Positions 33,377-53,509 of a DNA stretch of 64,000 nucleotides are shown here, piece after piece (the stretch's first letter is position 1; each line of letters starts with the position of its first letter). This stretch comes from Solirubrobacteraceae bacterium (GTDB taxonomy: Bacteria > Actinomycetota > Thermoleophilia > Solirubrobacterales > Solirubrobacteraceae): assembly GCA_035551855.1 (NCBI GenBank), contig DASZMK010000192.1, forward strand, positions 21-64,020, written 5' to 3'. The position numbers and the translations under genes are program-made. Below the pieces are notes generated by a model. That model saw only the letters and a program-made list of their open reading frames with translations, made no database searches and had not been told where the DNA came from.

Positions 33377-34081
33377 TCACGCGTCCTGCGCTGTCGCCAG
33401 AAACCGCGCGCACAGGGCCCGGCCGTCCGCGTTGGTCGCGTCCATCCGCTCGGAGATGGTCATGTCCAGCCTGGCCAGATCGATCGGCACCGGAACCCCG
33501 CCGGGCGCCGGACGATGCCGCCGGGCCCACACGGCCACCGACCCGCCGGTCACCTCGGGATGCCACTGCACACCCCACGCGCACGGGCCGACGCGGAAGC
33601 TCTGGAGGCACACGTCGTTGCGGGCGAGCGCGACCGCGCCCGGCGGAAGCTCGCACGCGTACGAGTGCCACTGGAAGACCTCGAACACGCGGGGCTGGCC
33701 GGCGAACAGCGGATCGTCGTCGGCCGCCTCGGTGAGCTGGATCGGACGCCAGCCGCATTCCGCCTCGGCCGCCGGACCGACCGCGCCGCCCGTCGCCCGC
33801 GCCAGCATCTGAGCGCCCAGGCACACGCCGAGGGTGGGGACGGCATGCTCGACCGCTGCCTGGAGGACGCCGAATGCCTCCCGTAACCACGGGTGGCGGT
33901 CCTCCTGGTCGACCTGCATCCCGCCGCCGAAGGCGATCACGGCGCCGTAGTCGGCCGGCGGTCGCGGCAGCGGCTCGCTGGCCGGCGCCCACGTTTCCAG
34001 GTCGTGCCCCTGCCGGCGGACCTCGTCGGCGAACACCCCTGGGCCGGCGACCTCGTGATTGACCAGGGCCAGGACTCTCAC
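33377..34081 (-). CDS. Type 1 glutamine amidotransferase-like protein
   Basis: LGVCLGAQ, QWH, VQWHPE (Cys-His-Glu triad). Confidence 0.9.
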   Translation of the reverse strand: MRVLALVNHEVAGPGVFADEVRRQGHDLETWAPASEPLPRPPADYGAVIAFGGGMQVDQEDRHPWLREAFGVLQAAVEHAVPTLGVCLGAQMLARATGGAVGPAAEAECGWRPIQLTEAADDDPLFAGQPRVFEVFQWHSYACELPPGAVALARNDVCLQSFRVGPCAWGVQWHPEVTGGSVAVWARRHRPAPGGVPVPIDLARLDMTISERMDATNADGRALCARFLATAQDA

Positions 34082-34161
34082 CGCTCACGCAGACCTTTTA
34101 TGCAAAAGATTCACAACCTTCAGGCCGAAATGGTACGGTACTGCCTGACTGAAGGCAAGCC

Positions 34162-37010: not shown

Positions 37011-37012
37011 CG

Positions 37013-37618
37013 ATGGCCGAGTTACGATCGTCGATCTTCATCGACCAGCTCCAGCCGCAGACGATGTGCTACCTCGGCACATGGGTGCGCGGGCGGCTGC
37101 CGCGCACGCGCATGGCGGCCGGGGTCATCGAGGTCGCTCCCGGGCTCGACATCGAGCCGCTCACCGATGTCGTGCTCAAGCACACCGAGGCCCAGGCGGG
37201 GATCCTGGTGGTGGAGCGCCAGTTCGGCTACCTGGAGTTCCACTCCCGTTCCACGTCGGCGGTCGAGTCGGCGAGCGACGCGGTGCTCGACGCGCTCGGC
37301 GCGGCGCCCGGCGACGCCACCGCGCCGACCATTCTGGCGGCCAAGCTCATCTCGCGGCTCGACCACCAGCACGCCTTCCTGATCAACCGCAACAAGCTGG
37401 GGTCGATGGCACTGCCCGGCGAGTCTCTGTTCGTGCTCGAGATGCAGCCGGCTTCGTACGCGATCCTCGCCGTCAACGAAGCCGAGAAGGCCGCCCAGAT
37501 CAAGGTCGTCGACTACCGGATGATCGGCGCCACCGGACGGGTGTACCTGACGGGTCCAGAGAGCGATGTCCGCACCGCCGCCGACGCGGCGACGGCCGTC
37601 CTGGGAGGCTCCATATGA
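37013..37618 (+). CDS. BMC-T tandem-domain shell protein
   Basis: ELRSSIFIDQLQPQ, IEVAPG, VVERQFGYLEFH, NEAEKAA, GATGRVYL. Confidence 0.9.
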   Translation: MAELRSSIFIDQLQPQTMCYLGTWVRGRLPRTRMAAGVIEVAPGLDIEPLTDVVLKHTEAQAGILVVERQFGYLEFHSRSTSAVESASDAVLDALGAAPGDATAPTILAAKLISRLDHQHAFLINRNKLGSMALPGESLFVLEMQPASYAILAVNEAEKAAQIKVVDYRMIGATGRVYLTGPESDVRTAADAATAVLGGSI

Positions 37619-38298
37619 GCGAGCTCGATTCCGGCGAGGCCATGCGCCAGACGGCCCGGGAGGTCCTGCGCGAGCTGCTGCCCGGGATGCTCGACGAGGT
37701 GCTCGGTCGCTCGCCGGACCGGTCGCGCGCGGGCACGAACGGCAGCGGCAGCGGTAGCGGCAGGGGTAGCGGCAGCGAGCATGCGAGCGAGGTCGTTCCG
37801 CTCGTGCCGGCACCGCCGGTGGCCGCCGTCCTGCGTCCCTCCACCTGGGCGGGGCCGCCGGTGCCGGGTGAGCGCATCGGCGGTGGCGAGCCGGCAGACG
37901 ACTCCGGCGTCGCGGCGGCGCCGCCGGCCGCAGCCGAGCGCCGGGACGGAGCATCCGGCGTGCACGTGGAACGGGTGACGATCGACAGCGACGAGGACCT
38001 CGAGCGCTTCGTGCGTGCACTCGTCACCCGCCTGGAGAACCCGCGCGACCGGCGCGCCGTCCGCACCGGCCGGTTGCGCTTCGCCCTGCACCGGCCGCCA
38101 ACCTTTCGGCCGGGCGGACCGCCGGGGGAGTCCCCCGGGCCGATGATGCGCGTGGGCAAGGGCGCGGTGACCGAACGGCTCGTCCGCGAGGCGGCCGCGG
38201 CGGGGGCGGGCATCATGCTCACCCGGGGGGCAGTCCTCACGCCGCTGGCCCGTGACCTGTCACGCAAGCTGCGCGTCCGGATCGAAAGGGAAGGCTGA
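37615..38298 (+). CDS. BMC-associated hypothetical protein with N-terminal encapsulation-peptide-like helix
   Basis: MRQTAREVLRELLPGML, G/S linker, C-terminal VTERLV...LTPLARD; lies between shell genes. Confidence 0.78.
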   Translation: MSELDSGEAMRQTAREVLRELLPGMLDEVLGRSPDRSRAGTNGSGSGSGRGSGSEHASEVVPLVPAPPVAAVLRPSTWAGPPVPGERIGGGEPADDSGVAAAPPAAAERRDGASGVHVERVTIDSDEDLERFVRALVTRLENPRDRRAVRTGRLRFALHRPPTFRPGGPPGESPGPMMRVGKGAVTERLVREAAAAGAGIMLTRGAVLTPLARDLSRKLRVRIEREG

Positions 38299-38598
38299 AT
38301 GCTGAAGGCGACGGTGGTCGGTTCGGTCTGGGCGACGCGGCGCCTCGAGGAGCTGCCGCACGGCGCCTTTCTCGAGGTCGAAGGCGACGACGGTGCTCGG
38401 CTCGTCGCCTTTGACGTGCTCGGCAGCGGGGTGGGCGAGCGCGTCCTCGTCGCCACCGGCTCGGTCGCCTCCGGGTGGTTCGGGCCTGAGCATCCTCCCC
38501 TGGACGCGCTGATCATCGGCTCGCTCGACGAGGTGCCGGGCGACCGGCCGCAGCCGGCGGGCAAGACAACCACAGCAAGGAGACGAAAACGTGAATGA
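38299..38598 (+). CDS. BMC-P vertex protein (EutN/CcmL family)
   Basis: [40 protein letters not shown]. Confidence 0.93.
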
Positions 38599-38866
38599 GG
38601 CGCTCGGTATGGTCGAGACGAAGGGATACGTGGCGGCGCTGGCGGCCGCCGACGCGATGGTCAAGGCGGCCAACGTGACCATCATCTCCCGTGAACAGGT
38701 GGGCGACGGTCTGGTTGCCGTGGTGGTCCGGGGTGATGTGGGAGCCGTCAAGGCGGCGACCGAGGCCGGCTCGGAGACGGCGTCGACCGTGGGCGAGCTC
38801 GTCTCGGTGCACGTGATCCCCCGCCCCCATTCGGAGCTCGGCAAGCACTTCACCGCCGAGGCATAG
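38591..38866 (+). CDS. BMC-H hexameric shell protein (EutM/PduA family)
   Basis: [38 protein letters not shown]. Confidence 0.97.
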
Positions 38867-38875
38867 ACCGCCGAC

Positions 38876-39526
38876 GTGTCTGCGGGTGCCGACACTCCGG
38901 TGCAACTGCGCGTCTACCTGCCCATCCCTGACCTCGCGGCGCAGTTCGCCGCCTACCTGGGGACACCGACGCGCGCGCGGGGCTACCCGCCGATCGCCGG
39001 CGACAGCGCGCTGATCGTCGAGGTCGCGCCCGCCCTCGCCATCGAGCGTGTGATCGACCTGGCGCTGAAGGCCGTCCCGGAGGTGGAGCCCGGCATTCAT
39101 TTCGTGGAGCGGCAATTCGGCGTGCTGGAGGTTCATGCGGCTGACCCGGACGCCGTGCAACGCGCCGGACAGGCGATCCTCGACGGCATCGGAGCGCACG
39201 CCGACGACGCGTTGCGCCCACGGGTGACCTATGTCGGAGTGATCGATGATGTCACCGATCAGCACGCGGTCATCATCAATCGCAACCGCGAGGCGTCGAT
39301 GCTGCTGCCCGGCCAGACCCTGCTCGTGCTCGAGCTGACCCCCGCGCTGTTCGCCGCGGCCGCGGCCAACGCCGCCGAGCGGGTCGCGCCCGCGCTGACG
39401 CTGATCAGCGTGTCGATGATCGGTGTGGCCGGCCGGCTCTACCTCGCCGGCGAGATGTCTGACATCGTACGGGCACGCGAGGAGATCAGCCGGGTTCTCG
39501 ACGCGATCACCGGGCGCGAACAGTGA
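38876..39526 (+). CDS. BMC-T tandem-domain shell protein
   Basis: LRVYLPIPDL, IVEVAPA, FVERQFGVLEVH, NAAERVAP, GVAGRLYL. Confidence 0.9.
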   Translation: MSAGADTPVQLRVYLPIPDLAAQFAAYLGTPTRARGYPPIAGDSALIVEVAPALAIERVIDLALKAVPEVEPGIHFVERQFGVLEVHAADPDAVQRAGQAILDGIGAHADDALRPRVTYVGVIDDVTDQHAVIINRNREASMLLPGQTLLVLELTPALFAAAAANAAERVAPALTLISVSMIGVAGRLYLAGEMSDIVRAREEISRVLDAITGREQ

Positions 39527-40530
39527 GCGAGAACATGGACGCCATCGACGACGGCATGGCCCAACTGGCCCGGACGGCGGTTGAACGCTATGGGATCGAT
39601 GCCGGCACGGTGGAGCTCTGCAACGTCTCCGAGAACCACACCTACCGCGTCGAGAGCCCCGGCAGCGGCTCGTGCTTCGCGTTGCGGGTGCACCGTCCCG
39701 GGTACCGCAGCCCGGAGGAGATCGAGTCGGAGCTGATGTGGCTCGACGTGCTGCGCGCCGGCGGCGGGGTGCAGACTCCGCCCGTCGTCCCCGCCATCGA
39801 CGGGGCCCGGGTGGTCTCGGTGAGCACGCGCGAGGTGGGCACGCGCAACGTGGTGATGTTCGAGTGGGTGGCGGGGATCCAGCCTGACCTCGACGCCGGC
39901 GAGACGGCGCTCGCGCAGTTCGAGACGCTGGGGGCGATCTCCGCTCGGATGCACGCGCACGCGCGCTCCTGGAGACGCCCGTCTGCCTTCACCCGTCCGC
40001 GATGGGACTACGCGCACACGCTTGGTCCGGATGGCCACTGGGGACCCTGGCAGGACGGGCTCGGCATGGGCACCGAGGAGCGCCGCCAACTCGAGCGCCT
40101 GGCGGCCACCATCGCCACTCGGTTGCAGGCATACGGCCAGGACGCACAGCGGTTCGGACTCGTGCACGCCGACCTCCGCCTGGCCAACGTCCTGATCGAT
40201 GACGGGGACGTGCGCGTCATCGACTTCGACGACTGCGGATTCTCGTGGTACGTCTACGACTTCGCGACGGCGGTGTCGTTCATGGAGGACCACCCGCGCG
40301 TACCGGAGCTTCGCGCCGCCTGGGTTCGCGGCTACCGCTCCGTGGCCGCCCTCGAGCCCGCTGCCGAGGCCGAGCTGGAGACGCTCGTGATGCTGCGCCG
40401 GCTGTTGCTCGTGGCGTGGATCGGTTCGCACCACACGTTTGCCCCTGAGGCGGCGGAGCTCGGCGCCGGGTTCACGGCCGGCACGTGCTCGCTCGCCGAG
40501 GACTATCTCACCACTCATTCGTCACCGTAG
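39523..40530 (+). CDS. APH/choline-kinase-family phosphotransferase (putative aminopropanol kinase)
   Basis: [31 protein letters not shown]. Confidence 0.88.
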
Positions 40531-40538
40531 GAGGACGC

Positions 40539-41312
40539 ATGTTCACACCTGTGACCGGCCGCACCGTTCTCGTGACCGGCGGCACCAAGGGCATCGGCAA
40601 GGCGATCGCCCAAACCTTCGCTGACGCCGGGGCACAGGTCGCCGTCGCCGGTCGCGATCCGGACACCGGAGCCCGGGCAGTCGCCGAGCTCGGCAAGGAC
40701 GGATCCGACGTTGCCTTCATCCGCGGCGATGTCGGCGTCGCCCAGGACGCCGAGCGGATGGTGGCCGAGTCGGTGCAGCGCTTCGGAGGCCTCGACATCC
40801 TGTGCGCGAACGCCGGGATCTTTCCCGCAGTCCGTCTCGACGAGATGACCGCCGTCGATATCGACATGATCTTCGCGACCAACGTGAAGGGCATGATGCT
40901 GACGGTCAAGGCGGCCGCTCCCGCGCTGGCACGCAGCGGACACGGACGGGTGGTCGTCACGTCCTCCATCACCGGGCCGATCACCGGGTATCCCGGTTGG
41001 TCGCATTACGGGGCCACCAAAGCGGCACAGCTCGGTTTTCTCCGCACGGCCGCGATCGAGCTCGCTCCAGCCGGCATCACGATCAACGCGGTGCTGCCGG
41101 GCAACATCGAAACCGAAGGCCTCGAGGAGCTGGGGCCCGAGTACCGGCAGAGGATGGAGGCGTCGATCCCGCAGGGGCGGCTCGGCACCGGGGCCGACAT
41201 CGGTCACGCCGCGCTGTTCCTGGCGACGGACGAGGCCGCCTACATCACCGGGCAGACGATCGTCGTCGACGGCGGTCAGACCCTGCCTGAGTCGATCATG
41301 GCGCTCGAGTAG
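40539..41312 (+). CDS. Short-chain dehydrogenase (putative aminoacetone reductase / 1-amino-2-propanol dehydrogenase)
   Basis: [33 protein letters not shown]. Confidence 0.9.
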
Positions 41313-41316
41313 GACC

Positions 41317-42111
41317 TTGCCGGGCACACCATCGGACTCTCGATCCCAGGCTCGTCTCGGCCCGGCGGTGATCGTCGTCCGCGACCGCCTGCGCCACGAG
41401 ATCGCCTCCGGCGAGCTCGCCCCCGGGCAGCGACTCGGCGTCGAGCGCGAGATCGCGGAGCGACTCGGCGTCTCCCGCTCAACGGTTCGCGCCGCCTTGG
41501 CGGATCTGGAACGCAACGGCGCCGTCCGGCGCGCCCGTGGCCGGAACGGCGGGATCTTCGTCGCCGAGCGCAAGGTCGAGCGGGACCTCACGAGCCTCGC
41601 CGGGCTCCCCGCGTACCTGCGCCGGCAGGGATTCAGTTCGGACGCCCGCGTCATCGCCACCGCCACGTTCGCCGCTGACGACGACGCCGCCACCGCCCTG
41701 GCTCTCAGCCCGGGCGCCCTCGTCCATGAGGTGGTCCGGGTTCGCCTGGCCGATCAGGAGCCGATCTCGCTCGAACGGGCGACGTTCCCGGCCGCCGCCT
41801 TTCCGGGAATGCTCGACCATTCGCTCGGCGGGTCGCTGTACGAGCTCCTGCAGGCCGAGTTCGGCCTCGTGCCCGCCGAAGCCGAGGAGCGCATCGAGGT
41901 GGTCGCCGCGGGAGCCGCCGAGGCCCGGCTGCTCGGCGTCGCCCGCGGCGGTCCGCTGGTGGCCATCTCGCGGACGGCGTGGGACACCGAGGGTGTCGCC
42001 TTCGAGCACTCACACGACCTGTTTCGCGGCGACCGCGTCCGGATCGTGGTGCGCGCGCACTCGGCACCGGAGGCGACGGGTGTCGTCGCCGCCTCCGTGC
42101 AGGTGCGCTGA
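41317..42111 (+). CDS. GntR/HutC-family regulator with UTRA domain
   Basis: ELAPGQRL..EREIAERLGVSRSTVRAAL; SLYELL; FRGDR; start uncertain. Confidence 0.9.
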   Translation: MPGTPSDSRSQARLGPAVIVVRDRLRHEIASGELAPGQRLGVEREIAERLGVSRSTVRAALADLERNGAVRRARGRNGGIFVAERKVERDLTSLAGLPAYLRRQGFSSDARVIATATFAADDDAATALALSPGALVHEVVRVRLADQEPISLERATFPAAAFPGMLDHSLGGSLYELLQAEFGLVPAEAEERIEVVAAGAAEARLLGVARGGPLVAISRTAWDTEGVAFEHSHDLFRGDRVRIVVRAHSAPEATGVVAASVQVR

Positions 42112-42123
42112 AACCTCCGTCGC

Positions 42124-43707
42124 CTAGACCGAGTCCAGCCCCTGGTTGATCATGCGGCCGATCGTCTCGTACTTGGCGCGGTCGTGTGACTTGAGGTAGT
42201 AGGCATAGCCAAGGCCGCCGAGGAAGATCAGGAGGTCCCCCCAGCACAGCCACTTGGCATAGCTGTAGCCGGATCCGAGGAAATGGAGGTTCTTGATCGC
42301 CAAGTAGAGAACGTACGCCTGGCTGATGGCGGCGAGCACGGGCGCCGTGATGGTCGTCCACCAGTGATGATCGGCTTTGTGATGAGTGCGGAAGTAGTTG
42401 AAGATGGCGACGGACACGAGCGCCTGGATGGCCAGGATTGACACGACGCCCATGACGGCCATGAGCCCGTACACCTGGAGGTAGCCGACCGAGTCGGCAG
42501 CGCCGAGCTTGGTGTCGACCGCCGCGAACAACGCGAACGCGAGCAGGATGAGCGCCGCGACGACCGACTGCGTGGTTGACGCGATGTGGGGGCTGGCGTG
42601 CTTGCGATGGGTCCGCCCCAATGCCCTGAAGAGCACCCCCTCGCGGCCGAGGGAGTACATGTAGCGCGCGGTCGTGTTGTGAAAGGCCATCCCGCAGGCG
42701 AAGGACCCGGTGATGATGAACCAGCTGAGCAGGTCCTTCAAAAACAGTCCTCCGTAGCGCTGGGCGGGGATGAAGTAGAACTCGGCCGAGTTGTTCTGGG
42801 CGACGTTGACGGCTTGGTTGAAGTGGGAGTAGCCGCTGATCCCCGCCCACGATGTCAGCGCGTAGAAGATGCCGAGCCCGATGACCGAGATGTACAGGGC
42901 CCGCGGGACGTTCTTCTTGGGGTTCTTGGATTCCTCACCGTAGTTCGGTGCCATTTCCCAGCCCACCCAGGACCAGAAGGCGAAGAAGATGCCGATCCCG
43001 GCGGCCCCGGCGGCAAGCGCCGTTCCCCCGGCGTGGCCGGCCGGCAGGGCCTTGAACGCGTTGACCGGGTTGATGGCGGCGGCGCTGACGGTTCCCCTGG
43101 CGAACATGAAACCGTCGAAGACGAGCAGCGTGATCACCTCGCAGAGAAGCGCCACGCCGAGGATGCGAGATGACAGCTTGACCTCGAAGTAGGCCAGGAC
43201 AGCGATCAGGGCGATCATCGCGAAGCCGAACCAGTACCACTCGATGTGCACGCCGTACCGGGCCGCTTTCAGCGAGGCGAAGTAGGCAAAGCCACCGACG
43301 AGCGAGACCTCGAAGACGCTGTAGGCCGCGACCATGGCAAACCCGCTCGCCATTCCGAGCTCGCGGCTGAGGCCGTGGCTGATGAAGCTGTAGAAGCCGC
43401 CTGCCGCGGTCACCTTCCGGGCCATGGCGACATAGCTCACGCCGAAGACCGTCAGCACGATCGCGGCGAAGATGAATCCGGCCGGCGTGCCGATGCCGTT
43501 TCCGAACCCCACCGAGATCGGCGTGTTGAACAGCATGGCGGAGATGGGCGCCGATCCCGTCACCGTGAGGAACAGCACGCCGACGAGGCCGACGGCCGCC
43601 GGTCTCAGCTTGTGGACGTCGTGGCGCTCCGCGATGTCGACGCTCTCCACGACGGGAAGCATCCCCTCATGGTGCGGCTCCTTGATGAGTTGCCCCTGAG
43701 TATCCAC
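42124..43707 (-). CDS. APC-family amino acid/amine permease
   Basis: About 12 TM segments; GSAP, GGFYSFI, SWVGWE, GEESKNP. Confidence 0.9.
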   Translation of the reverse strand: MDTQGQLIKEPHHEGMLPVVESVDIAERHDVHKLRPAAVGLVGVLFLTVTGSAPISAMLFNTPISVGFGNGIGTPAGFIFAAIVLTVFGVSYVAMARKVTAAGGFYSFISHGLSRELGMASGFAMVAAYSVFEVSLVGGFAYFASLKAARYGVHIEWYWFGFAMIALIAVLAYFEVKLSSRILGVALLCEVITLLVFDGFMFARGTVSAAAINPVNAFKALPAGHAGGTALAAGAAGIGIFFAFWSWVGWEMAPNYGEESKNPKKNVPRALYISVIGLGIFYALTSWAGISGYSHFNQAVNVAQNNSAEFYFIPAQRYGGLFLKDLLSWFIITGSFACGMAFHNTTARYMYSLGREGVLFRALGRTHRKHASPHIASTTQSVVAALILLAFALFAAVDTKLGAADSVGYLQVYGLMAVMGVVSILAIQALVSVAIFNYFRTHHKADHHWWTTITAPVLAAISQAYVLYLAIKNLHFLGSGYSYAKWLCWGDLLIFLGGLGYAYYLKSHDRAKYETIGRMINQGLDSV

Positions 43708-43786
43708 GTCACTCTCCTCGGTCTGGTGCTGGGCTGGTGCTGAACGCCGGCTTACATGGCAATGGTGATCTGGGTGGGCATGCGCG

Positions 43787-44461
43787 TCACGTCCTCACGG
43801 CATCCGCGGCATCGAGGACGTACCGCAGCTGCGCGGCCAGCGGCGCCCCCGGCACGAGCTTTCCATCCAGCGCCGCAGTCCCGATGGTGAACGCCCACAC
43901 ACCGCGCTCGGCCAGCGCCCGGATCCGTTCTGTGGAGTCGACGGAGCCCGCCGCGATGACGGGCAGGGACGTCGCCTTGACGACGGCCTCGACGAGTTCG
44001 TCGACATCGCCGTCATAGCGGTAGGCCAGCAGGTTGATGCCGTCGACATCGCGCGACTGAGCCCGCAGAGCATCCTCGGCGATCTCGTCGATCGTTCCGC
44101 GCAGGAGGCAGGGATGATCGATCACCTGACCGATGTAGGGGAAGAACCGCATCCCGGAGCCGGCGATGAGCTCCTGGACGGGCTCTATCAGCGTCCCGCC
44201 GATCAGGTAGTCCGGGGTGATCTCGGCCGCGACCCGCGCGGACTGAAGCGTCGCCGCCTCGGTCTCGGAGACGACCTCCAGGTAGCTCGTGTGGCCGTTG
44301 GCTCTGATGTCCTGCATCAGGGCTGCCAGCTCATCCCGGGGCAGGCCAAGGTCCTTGCACCCGACGTGTCGGATTCCCGTGTCCGCGACTGACTCGTACA
44401 CCCGGCGCGCATCTGCGATCGTCCGGTCATCGCGCGTGAGCATGAAGATGAATTCGGTCAA
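43787..44461 (-). CDS. Uncharacterised TIM-barrel-like protein
   Basis: TEFIFMLT, VGCKD, LEVVS, DYLIGGT, LLAYR, VIAAGSV...FTIGTA (phosphate-binding-like end); TTG start 44461. Confidence 0.75.
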   Translation of the reverse strand: MTEFIFMLTRDDRTIADARRVYESVADTGIRHVGCKDLGLPRDELAALMQDIRANGHTSYLEVVSETEAATLQSARVAAEITPDYLIGGTLIEPVQELIAGSGMRFFPYIGQVIDHPCLLRGTIDEIAEDALRAQSRDVDGINLLAYRYDGDVDELVEAVVKATSLPVIAAGSVDSTERIRALAERGVWAFTIGTAALDGKLVPGAPLAAQLRYVLDAADAVRT

Positions 44462-44472
44462 CTCCGGCTTCC

Positions 44473-44665
44473 AGTTGTCAGACAACTTTCGCGGCAGCGT
44501 AGCGATTTGGCGGATGGTTGGCAAGACGGCCGATCGCGATCGTGACGGACCTGATCGTCGCCGCCCGCTGTGAGGGAAAGGGTGACTGACATGTCCGGGC
44601 CCACCGCCGAAGGGCGGCTACGCGCGCAGGCGCGCCCTCCAGACGCCGACGAGTTGTCAGACAAC
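44473..44665. promoter_or_regulatory. Two copies of palindrome GTTGTCAGACAAC (putative GntR/HutC operators) in a divergent intergenic region
   Basis: AGTTGTCAGACAACT at 44473-44487 and GTTGTCAGACAAC at 44653-44665. Confidence 0.7.
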
Positions 44666-44704
44666 GTGGTAGCGTCTTGGGCCGGTCGAAACGAAAGGTC
44701 CCGA

Positions 44705-45763
44705 ATGCGCGCAGCGGTTTGGAACGGCCCGGGGGCGATGTCTGTGGGCAGTGCTCCAGATCCCACATGCCCGGAGGACGGGGTGCTGCTCCGCGTGCTG
44801 GCCTGTGGCATCTGCGGCACCGACGTCCGCTCTTTCTACAACGGGGATCGCCGCATCGCACCTCCGTGGGTTCTGGGGCACGAGATCTCCGGCGAGATCG
44901 CGGAGATCGGACCCCGCGCCGAACGCGAGGTCGACGAGGCGGGGCTGGCGGTCGGTGACGCGGTGCATTGCATCTCGACCCTCTGGTGCGGGCGCTGCCG
45001 CATGTGCCGCGGCGGGCACGAGAACCTCTGCCTGCATGGCGAGCTGATGGGCTTTGACCATCCGGGGGCCTATGCCGAACACGTGGCCATTCCGCGGATC
45101 GCCCTCAAGAACCTGTTCCGGATCCCGCCCGGGTTATCGCCGGCCCAGGCGACGTTCGCCGACCCGCTCTCCGACGTCATCTGCGGACACAAGGACCTGG
45201 CGATCACCCTTGACGAGGTGGTCGTCGTCATCGGCGCCGGACCCGTCGGCGCCGCCCATGCCGCGCTGGCGCGTCTGCAGGGCGCGGCGGAGGTGCTGCT
45301 CCTGGAGCGAACCGTCCGGCGCCTGGACCTGGCGCGGGCGCTCCTGGGGGATCAGCGGATGACCTACGTCGACACCGATGGAGAGGACGGCTTGGCCGCC
45401 GTGATGCGGACGACGGAGGACTTCGGCGCCGATGTGGTGATCGTCGCGTGCTCCAGCGACGCCGCCCAGGAGCAGGCGATGGGGATGGCCGCTCCCAGAG
45501 GACGCGTGATGTTCTTCGGCGGCCTTCCCAAGGGGACGACCGCGATCCGCTTTCCGTCCAATGTCCTGCACTATCGCGAGGTGCAGGTGCACGGTTCCTA
45601 CGCGTCGCGCCACCGTGACCAGCTGCGCGCTCTGGACATGCTGGCGGCGGACGCGGGCGGCATCCGCTCGGTCGTCTCGGAGATCATCTCGCTGGATGAC
45701 ACGCCCGGCGCGTTTGAGCGCATTCGCGCCGGCGGGGCACTGAAGCTGGTCGTCGCACCGTGA
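44705..45763 (+). CDS. Zinc-dependent (polyol/iditol-type) alcohol dehydrogenase
   Basis: CGICGTD, GHE, CGRCRMC...C, GAGPVG. Confidence 0.9.
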   Translation: MRAAVWNGPGAMSVGSAPDPTCPEDGVLLRVLACGICGTDVRSFYNGDRRIAPPWVLGHEISGEIAEIGPRAEREVDEAGLAVGDAVHCISTLWCGRCRMCRGGHENLCLHGELMGFDHPGAYAEHVAIPRIALKNLFRIPPGLSPAQATFADPLSDVICGHKDLAITLDEVVVVIGAGPVGAAHAALARLQGAAEVLLLERTVRRLDLARALLGDQRMTYVDTDGEDGLAAVMRTTEDFGADVVIVACSSDAAQEQAMGMAAPRGRVMFFGGLPKGTTAIRFPSNVLHYREVQVHGSYASRHRDQLRALDMLAADAGGIRSVVSEIISLDDTPGAFERIRAGGALKLVVAP

Positions 45764-46503
45764 GCGGGACGCCGTCCCTGCGCCACCAGCTCGCGCGTGA
45801 GCTGCGGACGCGGATCCACGCCGGCGAGCTCGCCCCCGGGGACAAACTGCCCTCGGAGCCCGAGCTGGCGCACGTCCGATCCGTCTCGCGTTCCTCCGTG
45901 CGAGCGGCGATCACCCTCCTGGAAGAGGAGGGCGTGGTTGCTCGCCGCCACGGCTCGGGGACATACGTCACGCACCGCCCGGCCCTCCCCAACGACCTGA
46001 GCCGCAACTTCGGCGTCTCCTCGTTGATCTCCTCGACCGGCCTCACGCCCGGCACGGCCGAGGAGACATGCGAGCTCGTGGAGCCGCCGCCGTGGGTTGC
46101 CCTGGCTCTCGAGGTTCCCGCCGGCACGCCGGTCACGTCGCTGAGGCGCGTGCGCACCGCCGACGGTCGACGGGTGGCGATCACCACCGACTGGTGTCGC
46201 TCCGAGCACCTGAGCCCTGAGGACCTGGTGGCGATCGGAGACGGATCCATCTACGCCGCCCTGAGCGCGCGGGTTCTCGTCGTGCACCACGGAGTCGCGA
46301 CCCTGACCCCGGGCAACGCCGATGCCGATGCGGCTCGGCGGCTTGATGTGGCCCGCGGGGCGTTGCTCCTCACCATCGACCAGATCGACACGACGGCGGA
46401 CGGCGTGCCGGTGCTCGTCTCACGCGAGCATCATCTCGCCGACGCGTTCGCGTTCACCGTCGTCCGTCACGGCCCGGGCGCGGCGACCGAGGTGCAGCCC
46501 TGA
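45760..46503 (+). CDS. GntR/HutC-family regulator with UTRA domain
   Basis: GDKLPSEPELA, VSRSSVRAA, HGSGTYV. Confidence 0.92.
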   Translation: MSGTPSLRHQLARELRTRIHAGELAPGDKLPSEPELAHVRSVSRSSVRAAITLLEEEGVVARRHGSGTYVTHRPALPNDLSRNFGVSSLISSTGLTPGTAEETCELVEPPPWVALALEVPAGTPVTSLRRVRTADGRRVAITTDWCRSEHLSPEDLVAIGDGSIYAALSARVLVVHHGVATLTPGNADADAARRLDVARGALLLTIDQIDTTADGVPVLVSREHHLADAFAFTVVRHGPGAATEVQP

Positions 46504-48014
46504 GCGATGCCGGCCCGCTTGTCGTCGGGATCGATGTCGGTTCGCAGGGCACATGCGCCCAGGCCCTGGAGCCGGACGGGACTCTCATCGCCTCGAGCTA
46601 CGCGCCGCACGATCTGCAGTATCCACGCCCGGGCTGGGCCGAGCAGGACCCGGGGGAATGGCTCCGGGCACTCGTCCAGACGCTCGCCGAGCTGCGCCTG
46701 GCGACGCGGCGGCCGGTCCGTGCCATCTCGTTCGGCTCGCAGCTCGATGGTCTCGTGGCCACCGACGGCCACGGGCGGGCGCTGCGGCCGGCACTGATCT
46801 GGTCCGACCGGAGGGCCGATGCCGAATGCGAACGGGTGGCCGCGGACTGCGACGTGGTCCGCCTGCGCGAGCGCACCGGCTGCAACCTGGACCCCGGGCA
46901 CGTTGCCTCGAAGATCGCCTGGTTGCGGGTGCACGAGCCTGAGGTCGATCGTCAGGCGGTGCGGTATCTGCTGCCGGGCTCCTGGGTTGCCTACCAGGCG
47001 ACCGGCGAGGTCGCGGTCGACCCGACGAACGCTTCGTCGACGGGGCTGCTCGATTCGCGGCGACTGCAATGGTCTGACGAAGCGTGCGCGGCGTTCGCCA
47101 TCGACCCGGAGCGTCTCGGCCCCGTGCGCCCGTCCGACGCCGTGCTCGGTCGCCTGGCCCCGTGGCTGCGCGACGCGACCGGCCTGCCCGGCGACACCGA
47201 GGTGGTGCTCGGCGCCGGCGACGAGATGGCCGCGGTGCTCGGCGCGGGGGTGACCGAGCCCGGAGAGGTGTGCGACGTGATGGGGACGGCCGAACCCGTC
47301 TGTGCCGTGCTCGGCGCCCCTGCGCTCGATGCGGCTCCGCTCGTGGAGCTCCATCCCCATGCCGTGCCGGACCGATGGCTGCTGGAGAACCCCGGCTGGC
47401 TGTCCGGAGGGGCGTACCGCTGGTTTCGCGACGAGCTCGGTGGTCCGGAGGTCGCCCGCGCGGCGGCGACGGGCGCCGACGTGTACGAGCTGCTCAACGC
47501 GCTCGCGATGGGGGCGCCACCCGGTGCCGCCGGGGTGTGCTGGGTCCCGGCGCTGTCCGGGGCGATGGCGCCGGAGTGGAACTCGCGGGCGCGAGCTGGC
47601 TGGTTTGGACTGACGGCCGCGCACGGCCGGGCACACATGGCACGGGCGCTGCTCGAGGGCAACGCGCTGGCGCTGCGCGACGTCGTGGAGGCGATCGCCG
47701 CCGGCGGTCACCGGCTGACCGGCCTGGTCTGCGTGGGGGGAGGGGCGCGCGGGGAGCTGCTCCTGAGCATCCGCGCGAACGCGACCGGGCTGACCGTCTG
47801 CCGTCCACAGGACGTGGAGACGACGGCCCGGGGAGCGGCCATGCTCGCCGCCGCGGGCAGCGGGATCCATGCGACCGTCGCCGCGGCGGCGAAGACGATG
47901 GCCGGGCCGCGCGTCGAGCCGGTGCAGCCTGACCCGGAGCTCCGCGCCGTCTATGACGCGGTCCATGCCCGCCACCTCCAGGTGTACGCGGCGCTGCGCC
48001 CGCTATACGAGTGA
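46500..48014 (+). CDS. FGGY-family carbohydrate kinase (xylulokinase-like), probable CTG start
   Basis: In-frame region upstream of the ORF-track start encodes VVGIDVGSQG and PRPGWAEQDP; WSDRRA, GAGDE, GGGARG. Confidence 0.85.
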   Translation: MSDAGPLVVGIDVGSQGTCAQALEPDGTLIASSYAPHDLQYPRPGWAEQDPGEWLRALVQTLAELRLATRRPVRAISFGSQLDGLVATDGHGRALRPALIWSDRRADAECERVAADCDVVRLRERTGCNLDPGHVASKIAWLRVHEPEVDRQAVRYLLPGSWVAYQATGEVAVDPTNASSTGLLDSRRLQWSDEACAAFAIDPERLGPVRPSDAVLGRLAPWLRDATGLPGDTEVVLGAGDEMAAVLGAGVTEPGEVCDVMGTAEPVCAVLGAPALDAAPLVELHPHAVPDRWLLENPGWLSGGAYRWFRDELGGPEVARAAATGADVYELLNALAMGAPPGAAGVCWVPALSGAMAPEWNSRARAGWFGLTAAHGRAHMARALLEGNALALRDVVEAIAAGGHRLTGLVCVGGGARGELLLSIRANATGLTVCRPQDVETTARGAAMLAAAGSGIHATVAAAAKTMAGPRVEPVQPDPELRAVYDAVHARHLQVYAALRPLYE

Positions 48015-48020
48015 GCCGCG

Positions 48021-49820
48021 GTGCGACCGCCGATCCGACCTCAGAGTGCTCTCAGCGTGGCGACCCGCGGGGAGGCACTGGCGGCCATGGCGGCCGGCGG
48101 TCTCGACCTCCTCATCGTCGGTGGTGGCATCACGGGAGCCGGCGCCGCCCTCGACGCGGCCGTCCGAGGGCTGAACGTCGGCCTGGTGGAGAAGGCGGAC
48201 CTTGCGGCCGGGGCGTCGAGCAAGTCGAGCAAGCTCATTCACGGCGGCTTGCGCTATCTCGAGATGGGGGACATCGGCCTGGTCCGCGAGGCGCTGCGCG
48301 AACGCGAGTTGTTGCTCACCCGGCTGGCGCCGCACCTGGTGTCGCCGGTCCCGTTCCTGTGGCCGCTGCGCCGGCGGGGGTTCGAGCGCCTCTACGTGGG
48401 AACCGGCCTCGTGCTCTACGACACGCTCGGCGGTGCCCGCTCGGTCCCACGTCACCGTCACCTCTCCCGGCAGAAGACGTTGTCCGCCGCTCCCGCCCTG
48501 GGTGGGCGCGGGCTCGTCGGCGGGGTGCGGTTCCACGACGCGGCTGAAGATGACGCGAGGATGGTCGTCGCGGTGGCGCGAACGGCCGCCGCCCACGGGG
48601 CTCAGGTGGTCACCCGGGCGCGGGTGGAGGAGTTGGTGCGCGGCGCGGGCCGGGTGTGCGGGGCCAACGTCCTCGACGAGGAGAGCGGGAGGAGGCTGAC
48701 GATTCCGGCCCGGCACGTCGCGCTGGCGGTGGGAGCGTGGACGGACGCGGTCCGGGCGACGTCCGGAGGAAGCTATGCCACGCACATCCGCCCGTCGAAG
48801 GGCATCCATGTCGTGGTGGCACGAGACCGCATTCCCATGGCGACGGGCATCCTGGCGCGGACCGAGAAGAGCGTCCTGTTCATCATTCCCACCGCCGCCG
48901 GGTGGTTGATCGGCGACACTGACACCCCATGGGCGCACGGTCCGGATGAGCCCGTGGCCAACAGTGCCGACATCGACTACGTCCTGGCAAAGGCCAATGC
49001 CCTGCTGGCGGAGCCGCTGACGCGGGCGGACGTGCGCGGCGTGTTCGCAGGGCTGCGTCCGCTCGTTGGGCCGGCTGACGCCACCGACACGACACGGCTG
49101 AGCCGTCGGCACGTCATCGAGACGCCGGTCCCCGGGCTCACGACCATCGCTGGCGGCAAGTACACCACGTACCGGGTCATGGCTGCCGACCTCGTCGACG
49201 CCGCGACCCGGGACATCGCCGGCGTTCCCGGCTCCAGCACCGAGCGGGTGCCGATTCTGGGCGCCGACGGCTTCGCCCGAGGGTGGGGGGGACGGGCCCG
49301 GCTCGCGGCGCAGACGGGCGTGGCGCCCGGGACGATGGCTCGGCTGCTGCGCCGCTACGGCGATGCGGTATCCGAGCTCCTGGCACTGATCGGCGAGCGG
49401 CCGGAGCTGGCCGAGCCGCTGGAGAACGGCGACGGGCACCTCGCGGCCGAGATCGTCCACGCCTGCACGCATGAAGGCGCGCTGCGCCTCGAGGATGTCC
49501 TCGAGCGTCGCACGCGGCTGGCGATCACGCGCGCCGACCGCGGAGGGGGAGCCGCGGCGGCGGCCGCGGCGCTGATGGCGGAGCCGCTTGGGTGGAGCGC
49601 AGGACGGACCGACCGGGAGATCGAAGACTGGCGCCGGCGTGTCGCGGCCACGCGGGCCGGCGAGGCGCAGCCTGACGACGAGCGCGCGTTGCGCGCCTAC
49701 CGCGCCGTCCTCAACGGCGAACCCGCTCTGCGCGCCGAGCACGCCGAGCGCGCCGTGACCGCCGAGCACGCCGAGCGCGCCGTGACCGCCGAGCACCCGC
49801 CCGTGCCGGATCCGCGATGA
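48021..49820 (+). CDS. glpD: FAD-dependent glycerol-3-phosphate dehydrogenase/oxidase family
   Basis: IVGGGITGAG, SSKSSKLIHGGLRYL, AGLRPL, GGKYTTYR. Confidence 0.9.
   Translation: MRPPIRPQSALSVATRGEALAAMAAGGLDLLIVGGGITGAGAALDAAVRGLNVGLVEKADLAAGASSKSSKLIHGGLRYLEMGDIGLVREALRERELLLTRLAPHLVSPVPFLWPLRRRGFERLYVGTGLVLYDTLGGARSVPRHRHLSRQKTLSAAPALGGRGLVGGVRFHDAAEDDARMVVAVARTAAAHGAQVVTRARVEELVRGAGRVCGANVLDEESGRRLTIPARHVALAVGAWTDAVRATSGGSYATHIRPSKGIHVVVARDRIPMATGILARTEKSVLFIIPTAAGWLIGDTDTPWAHGPDEPVANSADIDYVLAKANALLAEPLTRADVRGVFAGLRPLVGPADATDTTRLSRRHVIETPVPGLTTIAGGKYTTYRVMAADLVDAATRDIAGVPGSSTERVPILGADGFARGWGGRARLAAQTGVAPGTMARLLRRYGDAVSELLALIGERPELAEPLENGDGHLAAEIVHACTHEGALRLEDVLERRTRLAITRADRGGGAAAAAAALMAEPLGWSAGRTDREIEDWRRRVAATRAGEAQPDDERALRAYRAVLNGEPALRAEHAERAVTAEHAERAVTAEHPPVPDPR
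49734..49796 (+). repeat. 27-bp in-frame tandem repeat at the 3' end of glpD
   Basis: gccgagcacgccgagcgcgccgtgacc at 49734 and 49761, partial at 49788. Confidence 0.85.
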
Positions 49821-51313
49821 CCGACCTTGTCCTGGGGCTCGACCAGGGAACATCGAGCACGCGCTGCATCGCTCTCGGTCACGACCTCCGGCAGCACGGC
49901 GCAGCCGCGACGGCCGTGCAGGCCTCGTTTCCCGCACCTGGTCTCGTGGAGCAGGATCCCCTGGAGCTCGTCGCATCGGCGGCGACGGCGATCACCGGCG
50001 CGTTGGCGGCCGCCAAGGCGTCGCCCGGGGACGTGGTCGCACTCGGCATCGCCAACCAGACCGAGACGTTCATCGTCTCCGAGCGCGGCTCAGGACGGCC
50101 GGTGCACCCGGCCATCGTGTGGCAGGACCGGCGCACCGCCGAGGGATGTGCCGCACTCGCCGCGGCCGGGCATGCCGAGCGGGTGCGGTCGCGGACGGGG
50201 CTCGAGCTGGATGCGACATTCCCGGCAACCAAGATCGGGTGGCTGCTCGATCACGTGCACGGCGCTCGCGCGGCGGCCGAGCGCGGTGAGCTGGCGTATC
50301 ACGACGTCGCGGGATGGCTGGTGCGGCATCTCTCCGGCGTGCACATCGCCGAGGCGGGAAATGCCGGGCGGACGCTGCTGTGCCCCCTTGGCGGCAGCGA
50401 CTGGGACGACGGGCTCCTGGACCTGTTCGGTCTGCCGCGCGCGCTGTTTGCACCGATCGTTGACTCCGACAAGATTCCGGCCGCCCCGGCTCGGATGGCT
50501 GAGCCCGCGCCGGGGGCGATGGTCCTGCCGGAGCTTCCGGTGACGGGGGTTCTCGGCGATCAGCAGGCGTCGCTGTTCGGCCTCGGCTGCCGACAGCCGG
50601 GAACGGCGAAGGTCACCCTCGGCACCGGGGCGTTCGTCCTCGCGCAGGCGGGCAGCTCCGCGCCGCCACCGCCCCCCGGCGTCCTGGCCTCCTGCGCCTG
50701 GCGCTGCCGCGGTCAGACGAGTTATGCGCTGGAGGGGTTCATTCCCGCGGCCGGAGCCGCGCTGTCGTGGTTTGCCGACCTGGGCGTCCTGCCCCCGCCC
50801 AGCCGGCTCGACGCGCTGCTGGACGCGGCGGGGCCGGAGGATGGATCGGTGGCGTGCGTTCCCGCCCTCCAGGGCCTGGGCACGCCCACCTGGGACGCCG
50901 CCACCCGCGGGGCCCTGGTCGGCCTGAGCCGCGCCACCACCCGGGGTCAGGTCGCCCGTGCCGTCGTCGACGGTGTGCTCCACCAGGTCACGGACGCGAT
51001 CGACGCGATGAGGGCCGCGATGCCGCTCGAGGTCGTGCAACTCGACGGCGGGATGTCCCGCTCGGGATGGATCGTGCAGCGGCTCGCCGACGTGGCCGGC
51101 GTCCGAGTGCAGCGCGCGGTCGTCGGCGAGGCGACGGCGATCGGCGCCGCGATGATGGCCGGCCTGGCTGCCGGCTTCTGGAGCGGCCTGCACGACCTCC
51201 CCGCGGTGGGCACCGACCATGTTGCCGAGCCGTTGTGGCCGGACTCCAGGCGGGAAGCCGCGCGCGAGCGATGGGCCGAGGCGGTGACGCTGAGCGTGCA
51301 ATGGAGATGCTGA
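49817..51313 (+). CDS. FGGY-family kinase, divergent glycerol kinase-like
   Basis: GLDQGTSSTR, ANQTET, IVWQDRRT, GDQQASLFG, GTGAF, DGG. Confidence 0.88.
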   Translation: MTDLVLGLDQGTSSTRCIALGHDLRQHGAAATAVQASFPAPGLVEQDPLELVASAATAITGALAAAKASPGDVVALGIANQTETFIVSERGSGRPVHPAIVWQDRRTAEGCAALAAAGHAERVRSRTGLELDATFPATKIGWLLDHVHGARAAAERGELAYHDVAGWLVRHLSGVHIAEAGNAGRTLLCPLGGSDWDDGLLDLFGLPRALFAPIVDSDKIPAAPARMAEPAPGAMVLPELPVTGVLGDQQASLFGLGCRQPGTAKVTLGTGAFVLAQAGSSAPPPPPGVLASCAWRCRGQTSYALEGFIPAAGAALSWFADLGVLPPPSRLDALLDAAGPEDGSVACVPALQGLGTPTWDAATRGALVGLSRATTRGQVARAVVDGVLHQVTDAIDAMRAAMPLEVVQLDGGMSRSGWIVQRLADVAGVRVQRAVVGEATAIGAAMMAGLAAGFWSGLHDLPAVGTDHVAEPLWPDSRREAARERWAEAVTLSVQWRC

Positions 51314-51357
51314 AGCCGACTCGAGCAGGCCTGAACCTCAACCAAGGGTGCCCGCCG

Positions 51358-53306
51358 ATGTCCGACACCACCTCCAGCTCGACCAGGACGACGCTGCGCG
51401 ACGCCCCGGAGCCGGACGTTCGCCATCCCCTGGACCCCCTGACGGCGGAGGAGATGTCCCGCGCGGTGAGCATCCTCCGGACAGCGAGCCGGCTGCGCGA
51501 CTCGGCGCGGCTCTCGACCGTGGAGCTGCATGAGCCGCCGAAGGACGAGGTGCTGGGCTGGCCTGACAACGGGACCGTCGAGCGCCAGGCGTTCGTCATC
51601 GTCATGGATCGCGCCGACGGCACGGTGCATGAAGCCGTTGTCTCGCTTGACTGCGGCACGGTGACGGGCTGGCGCGCGCTGGACGGCGTCCAGCCACGCA
51701 TCATGAGCGAGGAGTTTGTGGAGTGCGAGGCGATGCTCAAGCGCCACCCGGACTACCTGCTCGCCCTCGCCAAGCGCGGCATCACCGATCCTGACCTGCT
51801 GATGGTCGATCCCTGGTCGGCCGGCGCCGCCGACGGCGCATCGACGCGACTCGCGCGGGTGCTGGCCTGGGTGCGCAGCGCGCCGGGCGACAACGGCTAT
51901 GCACGCCCGGTCGAGGGGCTGATCGCGCTGGTCGACCTGGCCAAGATGGAGGTGGTCAGGATCGAGGATCACGGCGTGGTAGCGCTTCCGCCGAAGCCGG
52001 GCAACTATACGTCCGGCTACCTCGGAAAGGTGCGCGAGGATCTGCGGCCGATCGAGATCACCCAGCCTCAGGGGCCGAGCTTCACCGTGCACGGTCACGA
52101 GATCCGCTGGCAGAAGTGGCGCGTCCGGATCGGATTCACCGCCCGAAAGGGCCTCGTCCTGCACACTGTCGCCTACGAGGACGATGGCCGGCTGCGACCG
52201 ATCCTCTACCGCGCGTCGTTCTCGGAGATGGTGGTCCCGTACGGCGAGGTGGAGCCGACGCACCGGTGGAAGAACGCATTCGACATTGGCGAATACGGGA
52301 TCGGCGCGATGGCCAACTCGCTCGAGCTGGGGTGTGACTGCCTGGGCGAGATCCGCTATTTCGACGCCGTGCTGAGCGACGCTGTCGGCCAGCCGGTGGT
52401 GCTCCGCAACGCCATCTGCGTTCACGAGGAGGATGCATCGCTGCTGTGGAAGCACACCGACTGGAGAACCAGCGAGACGGAGGTGCGACGCGGCCGCCGG
52501 CTCGTGATCTCATTCGTAGCCACCGTCGGCAACTACGAGTACGGCTACTACTGGTACTTCCAGCAGGACGGCGCCATCGAGTGCGAGGTCAAGCTGACAG
52601 CATCCTCTCCACCGGCGCAGTCGCCCCCGGCGAGACCAGTCCGTACGCGACCCTGATCGCGCCTGGCCTGCCGGCTCCCTACCACCAGCATTACTTCAAC
52701 GTGCGGTTGGACATGATGGTCGATGGTCCGCGCAACTCGCTGGTCGAGGTCGACACAAGATCCGAGCCGACCGGACCACGGAATCCCCTGGGCAACGCGT
52801 TCCGCGCCCACGAGACCGCCCTGGCACGAGAGACTCAGAGCGGCCGGATGGTCGATCCGTCACGGGCGCGCTACTGGAAGATCATCAACCCGAGCGTCCG
52901 CAACGCGCTTGGCTCACCCGTGGCATACAAGCTGGAGCCCGGCCTGAATGCTGCGTGCTTCGTGCAGCCTGACTCAGCTGTGGCCAGACGCGCCGGCTTC
53001 ATCACCGGACATGTGTGGGTGACACCGTATGACCACACCCAGCGGTTCGCCGCCGGCGACTATCCGAATCAGAGTCCGGGTGGGGACGGGCTGCCGGCGT
53101 GGATCGAGGCTGGCCGCTCCACCGAGGACACCGACATCGTGGTCTGGTACTCGATGGCGCACCACCACATCCCCCGGCCCGAGGATTGGCCGGTGATGCC
53201 CGTCGGCAAGATCGGCTTCATGCTCAAGCCCACCGGCTTCTTCGACCAGAACCCGGCGCTCGACGTGCCACCACCTGCCGGCCACCACTGCGGCGCCCAG
53301 GAATAG
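51358..53306 (+). pseudogene. Copper/TPQ primary amine oxidase interrupted by a 1-bp deletion at about 52600
   Basis: HPLDPLT, SLELGCDCLG, NYEY in frame 1; HQH and HHHIPRPEDWPVMP in frame 2; expected KLTGIL reads aagctgacagcatc. Confidence 0.88.
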
Positions 53307-53341: not shown

Positions 53342-53509
53342 ATCAGCGAGCCGCGCCTTCGCCGCGCGCGGGCGCAGCAGACGAGCCTCGTTTCAGCCCG
53401 TATCGACGATCCGCGGGAAACCTGAACTCCGGCGGGGCGCCATCAGGCAAAAGGGCAGGTCCGTAGCACATGCGCTCAGGCCGTGCTCACCGCCTGCCGA
53501 TACGGCCGG

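Follow-up and report, generated by a model that had tools for sequence, protein, structure and literature searches.

A portable barrel–dehydrogenase–kinase module beside amine microcompartment genes in Solirubrobacteraceae, with a suggested role in the use of hydroxylated amines

We analyzed a 64,000-nucleotide stretch (hereafter, the window) of a Solirubrobacteraceae metagenome-assembled genome (MAG), in which an operon for an RMM-type bacterial microcompartment (BMC) is followed, at positions 42124–53306, by genes for a permease, a phosphate-binding barrel protein, a zinc-dependent dehydrogenase, a GntR-family regulator (GntR2), two FGGY-family kinases, a GlpD-like dehydrogenase, and a copper amine oxidase. 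This region is best read as a composite of three units rather than as one operon system, namely, a self-regulated core module (the barrel gene, Zn-dehydrogenase, GntR2, and the first FGGY kinase), a GlpD-like/GlpK-like pair, and the oxidase. The core module is portable and conserved. Its repeated placement by amine-degrading gene sets, together with the amine-type transporters that accompany it, suggests that its substrate may be a hydroxylated amine or the carbon skeleton of such a compound; the proposed link of the module to amine catabolism is one of recurrent co-location. We put the probability of this reading at roughly 0.5, because the substrate class is inferred from sequence rather than from biochemistry and because the RMM operon and the module are regulated apart. 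The source assembly comprises 223 contigs (4.38 Mb, ~70% G+C, 84% complete), and the window belongs to contig C192.

The genes and sites are listed below, with families called by the curated cut-offs of Pfam and NCBIfam.

34162–42111, plus strand: RMM-type (aminoacetone/1-amino-2-propanol) microcompartment operon, assigned from Pfam matches; context, outside the module.
42124–43707, minus strand: APC-family permease (AA_permease_2, E = 3.7e-26).
43787–44461, minus strand: barrel protein (phosphate-binding, (beta/alpha)8 fold; 224 aa; TTG start), assigned from its AlphaFold2 model and fold matches.
44474–44486: operator-like palindrome GTTGTCAGACAAC, copy 1, 13 nt before the start codon of the barrel gene.
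44653–44665: operator-like palindrome GTTGTCAGACAAC, copy 2, ~40 nt before the start codon of the Zn-dehydrogenase.
44705–45763, plus strand: Zn-dependent medium-chain dehydrogenase of 352 aa, threonine-/polyol-dehydrogenase group (ADH_N, ADH_zinc_N).
45760–46503, plus strand: GntR2, a GntR/HutC-type regulator with UTRA (GntR and UTRA domains).
46500–48014, plus strand: FGGY kinase, xylulokinase-like (FGGY_N, FGGY_C).
48021–49820, plus strand: GlpD-like FAD-dependent dehydrogenase (DAO, DAO_C; 310 bits against the NF008899 cut-off of 360).
49817–51313, plus strand: GlpK-like FGGY kinase (431 bits against the TIGR01311 cut-off of 590).
51358–53306, plus strand: copper (topaquinone, TPQ) primary-amine oxidase, frame broken (Cu_amine_oxid halves in two frames).

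All genes of the original prediction for this region are present where it placed them, including the permease, whose end is separated by 12 bp from that of GntR1, the last gene of the RMM operon (position 42111). The prediction had missed the split frame of the oxidase, the unusual start of the first FGGY kinase, and the conservation of the barrel gene.

Related loci were collected at the species level, one genome per species, with an alignment of 12 barrel proteins as the query (an alignment of 56 sequences was too diverse), and 80 loci were obtained. Neighbor counts refer to a full-flank subset of 32 loci, defined by a barrel protein of at least 59% identity and by a barrel gene with flanks of no less than 8 kb on its downstream and 6 kb on its upstream side. 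No claim is based on the fragment L017 of the unpublished genome G025. An even sample of the class (400 genomes) and a separate sample of the phylum (400 genomes) were also used. The related loci and the close protein matches come from soil MAGs only, labeled Solirubrobacteraceae, Solirubrobacterales, or Gaiellales.

The arrangement of barrel gene, Zn-dehydrogenase, GntR2, and FGGY kinase is kept in Solirubrobacteraceae and Gaiellales, and 20 of the 32 full-flank loci have all three partners of the barrel gene. The barrel gene, previously considered an orphan, is actually the most conserved member of the module, while the GntR2 gene is located inside the operon in all Thermoleophilia relatives. 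Two congeners (G009 and G002) retain the full arrangement from the RMM operon to the GlpK-like gene at 70–92% protein identity; another genome (G035) has the barrel gene, Zn-dehydrogenase, GntR2, and FGGY kinase without RMM, and the same variants of the arrangement were observed on metagenome contigs. In distant lineages (Chloroflexota, Rubrobacteraceae, and Acidimicrobiia), genes linked to that of the barrel encode an FGGY kinase (42–44% identical), an Fe-ADH_2 protein resembling glycerol-1-phosphate dehydrogenase, and a HAD-IIA phosphatase. A PotD/PotF-like binding protein and ABC permeases are encoded in nine distant-phylum loci; in Thermoleophilia, the transporters adjoining the module are APC permeases, their place being taken in Chloroflexota and Acidimicrobiia by PotD-like ABC binding proteins. 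The pairing that is invariant across phyla is that of the kinase with the barrel enzyme, the type of dehydrogenase being variable and the transporters, where present, being of the amine type.

The RMM operon adjoins the module in 17 of the 32 loci and a second type of microcompartment in 5, whereas the remaining 10 have no shell genes nearby. In shell-less loci, the same permease is found with class-III aminotransferases, an aldehyde dehydrogenase, a DAO-family gene, and a GATase gene. When mapped onto the tree of barrel proteins, adjacency to RMM requires at least six changes, at least three of them forced by well-supported branches, and covers most of the Thermoleophilia clade, including clades down to ~65–70% identity. 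The junction between module and RMM varies, with APC permeases of three clades, both orientations, and genes inserted in between; an acetamidase/formamidase gene is present in 14 loci. In the class sample, close barrel homologs occur in three genomes (G124, G370, and G270) and RMM-type BMC-T genes in four (G124, G370, G164, and G156); in the two that have both units, these are 5–6 kb apart, and together with G000 they represent three families. The arrangement, which recurs across many related genomes, exceeds the chance expectation, and the association of the module with RMM is frequent, old, and rearranged, yet facultative. The co-occurrence with RMM shell genes that was to be expected if all these genes formed one system holds for the core module, is weaker for the GlpD-like/GlpK-like pair, and fails for the oxidase. 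No description of the module beside RMM was found in the literature, many subscription papers being beyond the reach of the search.

The second microcompartment type was observed beside barrel, Zn-dehydrogenase, and FGGY genes in Gaiellales-like MAGs (L055:13335-20073; also L056, L057, and L058). Its genes are a GATase_6/GXGXG/Glu_synthase trio, which resembles N-methylglutamate synthase, an aldehyde dehydrogenase, BMC-H, a DUF3830/cyclophilin-like gene, and BMC-T, without an APH kinase.

The 243-bp region between the two divergent operons of the module contains two identical perfect 13-bp palindromes, GTTGTCAGACAAC. No further copy with up to one mismatch exists anywhere in the 4.38-Mb assembly. 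In 36 related loci, GTTGTCnGACAAC is located 25–45 nt upstream of the barrel gene, and it is usually the sole such site in 20 kb. GntR2 is presumed to be the repressor of both divergent operons. On the minus-strand side, the barrel gene lies 79 nt upstream of the permease, with a ribosome-binding site present and GGAG preceding its TTG start; no terminator-like site was found between the two genes, and they are probably co-transcribed. On sequence grounds, we assign the permease to the GntR2-controlled unit. Permeases of the window clade also adjoin the barrel gene in loci without RMM, and mycobacterial RMM permeases, which are 40–43% identical to that of the window, form a separate clade in the quick tree on which the permease phylogeny is based. 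The APC permease is associated with the module no less closely than with RMM.

An open reading frame (ORF) of 153–165 aa, belonging to no known family, is situated between the barrel gene and the permease in 16 related loci. The window has just a 79-bp gap (43708–43786) at this place, and hence the gene has been lost here.

A different element is located upstream of the RMM operon, AGACCTTTTATGCAAAAGATTC at 34091–34112. Relatives have clearer AGACC...GGTCT palindromes there, followed by a conserved GGTACGnT box, and the element probably represents the operator of GntR1 together with the promoter. No operator shared by RMM and the module was found. The view that the whole region is one linked system is only partly borne out: the arrangement does recur beyond chance, but the regulators and operators are different and each unit also occurs alone.

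The GlpD-like and GlpK-like proteins belong to the same families as the enzymes of canonical actinobacterial glycerol catabolism (glpF-glpK, glpD), but they score below the equivalog cut-offs and have no adjoining MIP channel. A canonical glycerol set, in which glpD is divergent from glpF (MIP channel) and glpK, was found on contig C70 (L125, 14000–24000), its GlpD scoring 356 bits and its GlpK 713.5 bits by the same models. Thus, the window genes are spare, divergent paralogs. The GlpK-like kinase is 37% identical to the canonical GlpK of C70 and is clearly related to glycerol kinases (E = 1e-104). The pair follows the FGGY kinase in 7 of the 32 full-flank loci. In G124 and G370, GlpK-like and GlpD-like genes are located on the opposite side of the RMM operon, ahead of its phospholyase gene, and the G370 kinase matches the window GlpK-like protein with 279 bits versus 194 bits for the housekeeping GlpK. 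The pair is, accordingly, a recurrent but movable and lineage-variable partner of the module.

The C-terminal tail of the GlpD-like protein is encoded by a perfect 27-bp tandem duplication (2.4 copies, 49733–49796), which repeats the peptide AEHAERAVT. We considered this tail as an encapsulation peptide and rejected it, since it consists of the duplication and forms no amphipathic helix.

The oxidase resembles cytoplasmic copper amine oxidases of the Arthrobacter type (AGAO-like) in having the N2, N3, and catalytic domains (PF01179, NF008559) and the TPQ motif NYEY, encoded at 52530–52541, shortly upstream of the break. It differs from them in that the frame is broken and the gene is not conserved at its position. 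Its N-terminal part corresponds to NF008559 positions 9–408 and its C-terminal part to positions 407–640; instead of one uninterrupted frame of ~650 codons, there is a shift near 52600. The break is at 52598–52602 (ctgaca-gcatc), and the upstream frame stops at 52654–52656. The downstream frame, when read back, yields K-L-T-G-I-L-S-T only with one extra G, which indicates a 1-base deletion. Among public reads, the stretch occurs in one soil run (as Logan contigs), with no indel listed and no listed piece bridging 52600; this run is possibly the source sample of the MAG itself, and the frameshift is neither independently confirmed nor refuted there. In the same run, the contig of a more abundant relative diverges exactly at the break and has an intact frame. 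An assembly error may be the cause of the frameshift.

The oxidase gene is present in a single copy in the genome, and no copper amine oxidase was found in any of 83 related loci, including the seven with the GlpD-like/GlpK-like extension. In the closest congener, the GlpK-like gene is followed by different genes. An intact ortholog (75% identical) is encoded in G002 on another contig, beside a different APC permease; congener G009 has none, and homologs of 50–52% identity are located at other sites in G035 and G124. The gene is probably a pseudogene, a lineage-specific addition that has since decayed. Given its absence from the related loci, the frameshift, and the location of the G002 ortholog, the oxidase does not belong to the system, the splitting of flux toward oxidative deamination is no conserved design, and this apparently decayed local addition should not guide pathway inference.

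The barrel protein has no match to Pfam or NCBIfam at the curated cut-offs and none to NCBIfam at 1e-5; sub-threshold matches to His_biosynth and NMO cover its last 50 residues, and a protein atlas search returned no informative names. Its family consists of 812 clusters at 50% identity, with invariant D12, K36, E62, R148, and two glycine phosphate loops (G172/G194). The AlphaFold2 model has a pLDDT of 97.5. In an exhaustive structural comparison, the nearest solved fold is that of 3-hexulose-6-phosphate synthase (HPS; 9lj9, Z = 21.8, rmsd 2.3 Å over 197 residues), followed by PdxJ (20.2), pyruvate kinase (19.4), 2-keto-3-deoxy-6-phosphogluconate (KDPG) aldolase (19.1), and 3-keto-L-gulonate-6-phosphate decarboxylase (KGPDC; 18.8); the order of these matches does not single out one family. 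Foldseek against the PDB returned generic barrels only, pyruvate kinase first, and a sequence-profile search of the PDB matched HisA/PriA, NanE, and HPS in their C-terminal phosphate-binding strands only; none of these comparisons pointed to a specific function. Fusions of the barrel were observed in other lineages, with PdxA, a PALP-fold pyridoxal phosphate (PLP) enzyme, an MGS-like domain, or a cupin as the partner.

The signature of the orotidine monophosphate (OMP) decarboxylase suprafamily is D-x-K-x-x-D after the third strand. This motif is missing from the barrel protein, in which the third strand reads LEVVS.

The module parallels the E. coli yiaK-S and ula systems (YiaK, LyxK, SgbH/UlaD), in which a dehydrogenase and an FGGY kinase are likewise followed by a phosphate-binding barrel acting on a keto-sugar phosphate, and both HPS and KGPDC are among the closest solved folds. 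The differences are considerable: sequence identity is 9–17%; the barrel protein reaches no family model, and its family has invariant D12, K36, and E62 without D-x-K-x-x-D; the dehydrogenase is of the Zn-dependent medium-chain (Zn-MDR) type rather than of the YiaK type; and the transporters are amine-type.

For the Zn-dehydrogenase, the top NCBIfam model is L-threonine 3-dehydrogenase (NF003808/TIGR00692), with 162 bits against cut-offs of 380 and 458. Hence, it is a relative, not an ortholog, of this enzyme. Its best PDB matches are 4ej6 and the Pyrococcus Tdh (E ~1e-38), and the dehydrogenases of relatives are likewise called at 352 aa. The FGGY kinase matches the XylB model TIGR01312 over positions 83–480 with 235 bits (ORF from 46755), missing the cut-off of 380; its best PDB match is E. 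coli xylulokinase 2itm (E = 3.4e-52), and it is 82% identical to the kinases of congeners. Its frame is open and homologous from at least 46509, while the first ATG, GTG, or TTG codon occurs only at 46755. A CTG at 46500, with GAGG upstream, overlaps the stop codon of GntR2 (CTGA, within 46497–46503). The same junction reads CTGA in seven relatives and ATGA, GTGA, or TTGA in others. The kinase most likely starts at this CTG, which would be a conserved non-canonical, translationally coupled start and no defect.

In the composite reading, the region would contain two divergent operons, one of the barrel gene and the APC permease, the other of Zn-dehydrogenase, GntR2, FGGY kinase, and the GlpD-like and GlpK-like genes, both silenced by GntR2 at the two GTTGTCAGACAAC palindromes until a pathway intermediate releases it. 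The permease would bring in a small cationic hydroxylated compound, an amino alcohol or amino-polyol, whose secondary alcohol would be oxidized by the Zn-dehydrogenase. The FGGY kinase would then phosphorylate the resulting ketol, and the barrel enzyme would turn the keto-phosphate into a central metabolite. The GlpD-like/GlpK-like pair may follow the same logic in reverse, kinase before dehydrogenase, on a glycerol-like moiety. The copper amine oxidase would have been appended in this lineage only and later inactivated by the frameshift, and the neighboring RMM microcompartment is an autonomous amino-alcohol pathway with separate regulation. We propose that the module is kept beside RMM and other amine-degrading sets because these and the module contribute to the consumption of related amines as nutrients. 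Gene content, operators, synteny, paralogy, and the frameshift are observed features of the region, while the substrate class, the reaction order, and the role of the barrel enzyme are proposals.

Several observations weigh against this reading. A Zn-MDR dehydrogenase, an FGGY kinase, and a phosphate-binding barrel are the usual kit of plain polyol or ketose catabolism, and the fold matches of the barrel are generic, the top Z of 21.8 being just 1.6 above that of the next unrelated family. The GntR regulators of RMM and the module differ, their operators (AGACC..GGTCT versus GTTGTCnGACAAC) are unrelated, and the two units are hence separate regulons. RMM is present without the module in two Thermoleophilia genomes (G164 and G156, as a bare operon) and in Mycobacterium-like genomes, and almost a third of the full-flank module loci (10/32) have no shell genes nearby. 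Finally, most of the linked loci come from one class, and thus the counts are inflated by kinship. The main rival explanation is an ordinary operon converting a polyol to a ketose and its phosphate, in which the barrel would be an epimerase, aldolase, or decarboxylase, amines would play no role, and the adjacency to RMM would be inherited Thermoleophilia synteny. It is favored by the enzyme families and by the HutC-type GntR within the operon, as is usual in sugar-alcohol catabolism, by a regulator and an operator distinct from those of RMM, by the occurrence of RMM and the module each without the other, and by the fold neighbors of the barrel, which are sugar-phosphate enzymes. We nevertheless regard this explanation as rather unlikely, although a serious contender, as no sugar-type transporter accompanies the module, its place being taken by APC permeases of three clades or PotD-like proteins; as the module is found, in several arrangements, beside two types of microcompartment and beside aminotransferase/GATase/DAO sets; and as other lineages have fusions of the barrel with PdxA and PLP enzymes.

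A more specific and decidedly speculative variant of the amine reading is that the module and the GlpD-like/GlpK-like pair are two convergent routes for C3–C4 amino-diols (candidates being the enantiomers of 3-amino-1,2-propanediol, or serinol), with dehydrogenase before kinase in the one and kinase before dehydrogenase in the other, both reaching an amino-keto phosphate that the barrel, as a new enzyme family, would process. The shared intermediate might be, for example, 3-amino-2-oxopropyl phosphate, the product of PdxA; if true, this variant would explain the fusions of the barrel to PdxA, PLP, and MGS-like domains and would tie the module metabolically to the aminoacetone and amino-alcohol microcompartments. 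Salvage of a headgroup, i.e., of a conjugate of glycerol with an amino alcohol, seems improbable. It would send the amino alcohol to RMM and the glycerol through the GlpK-like and GlpD-like enzymes to dihydroxyacetone phosphate, leaving the dehydrogenase, kinase, and barrel as side routes. The presence of the pair beside RMM in at least three families and two arrangements and the clear kinship of the GlpK-like protein with glycerol kinases agree with such a scheme, but the region has no phosphodiesterase or lipase gene, the genome has a complete canonical glycerol set elsewhere, both proteins fall under the equivalog cut-offs, and the pair is missing from 24 of the 32 module loci. The model of the original prediction, in which one amino-polyol is split between an encapsulated phospholyase and a copper amine oxidase/polyol-phosphate route, is largely refuted and is now very improbable. 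In its favor, the oxidase follows the GlpK-like gene by 44 bp on the same strand, the TPQ motif is present, and the intact ortholog in a congener adjoins an APC permease and is hence an amine-use gene. These points are outweighed by the frameshift, by the lack of the oxidase in all related loci, even in those with the same Glp extension, by the different genes downstream of GlpK-like in the closest congener, and by the position of the G002 ortholog on a different contig, away from the module.

RMM-type microcompartments are among the least understood metabolosomes, their natural soil feedstocks included. Uncultured, abundant soil Actinobacteria (Solirubrobacteraceae, Gaiellales) keep the module by two kinds of amine organelle and by shell-less amine-degrading sets, and such placement points to an unrecognized class of hydroxylated-amine nutrient. 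The module also holds a sizeable enzyme family without an annotated function or a Pfam model, that of the barrel protein. The conserved operator and GntR2 give direct experimental access, since the effector that frees GntR2 from its operator would reveal an intermediate of the pathway.

The neighboring RMM operon is ordered as class-III PLP enzyme, aldehyde dehydrogenase (AldDH), shell genes, APH kinase, short-chain dehydrogenase/reductase (SDR), and GntR1, according to Pfam. The APH kinase (39523–40530) matches PDB entry 6ef6, the aminopropanol kinase of M. smegmatis, with E = 8.8e-87 and 295 bits, and is 48–50% identical to its counterpart in the canonical RMM1 locus. The operon is syntenic with the canonical RMM1 of the Mycobacterium-like genome G551 (phospholyase 70%, BMC-H 83%, SDR 61% identity). 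The gene set of RMM1, or the aminoacetone-utilization microcompartment (AAUM), was found in one operon, i.e., class-III PLP phospholyase, AldDH, BMC-H/P/T, SDR, and GntR. With the RMM1 locus known from Mycolicibacterium smegmatis (Axen et al., 2014; PMC4207490), the window shares the class-III PLP enzyme, AldDH, BMC-T/P/H, APH kinase, SDR, GntR, and an adjoining APC permease. In contrast to the window, canonical RMM1 has no barrel, Zn-dehydrogenase, FGGY, or GlpD/GlpK module within 20 kb, and its permease, at the 40–43% identity given above, is located, in divergent orientation, at the phospholyase end, whereas the window permease is located behind the barrel gene, at the opposite end of the RMM operon, in a unit with a different operator. 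In the phylum sample, canonical or shell-less RMM loci occur in three genomes, all from one 6-Mb genus. Each of these genomes has a divergent permease in the same identity range, and the module was not found within 20 kb of RMM in any of them.

A shell-less RMM set was observed in the Mycobacterium-like genome G589 (L119-L120, C1:453000-491999), where GntR, SDR, APH kinase, phospholyase, and a divergent permease occur without BMC or AldDH genes. Within the window RMM operon (region 36863–38298), the 410-aa ORF at 37066–38298 is probably not a single gene. A BMC-T-like gene is situated in another frame, at ~36863/37027–37618, with a BMC domain and 43% identity to the second BMC-T, and it is followed, as in relatives, by a gene of ~200 aa with no assigned function. 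Immediately upstream of the RMM operon, on the minus strand, there is a gene for a class-I glutamine amidotransferase or peptidase C26-like protein (33377–34081); similar GATase genes accompany the module in shell-less loci (e.g., L019). At the other end, beyond the module operon, a GGDEF-HD signaling gene is located at 53483.

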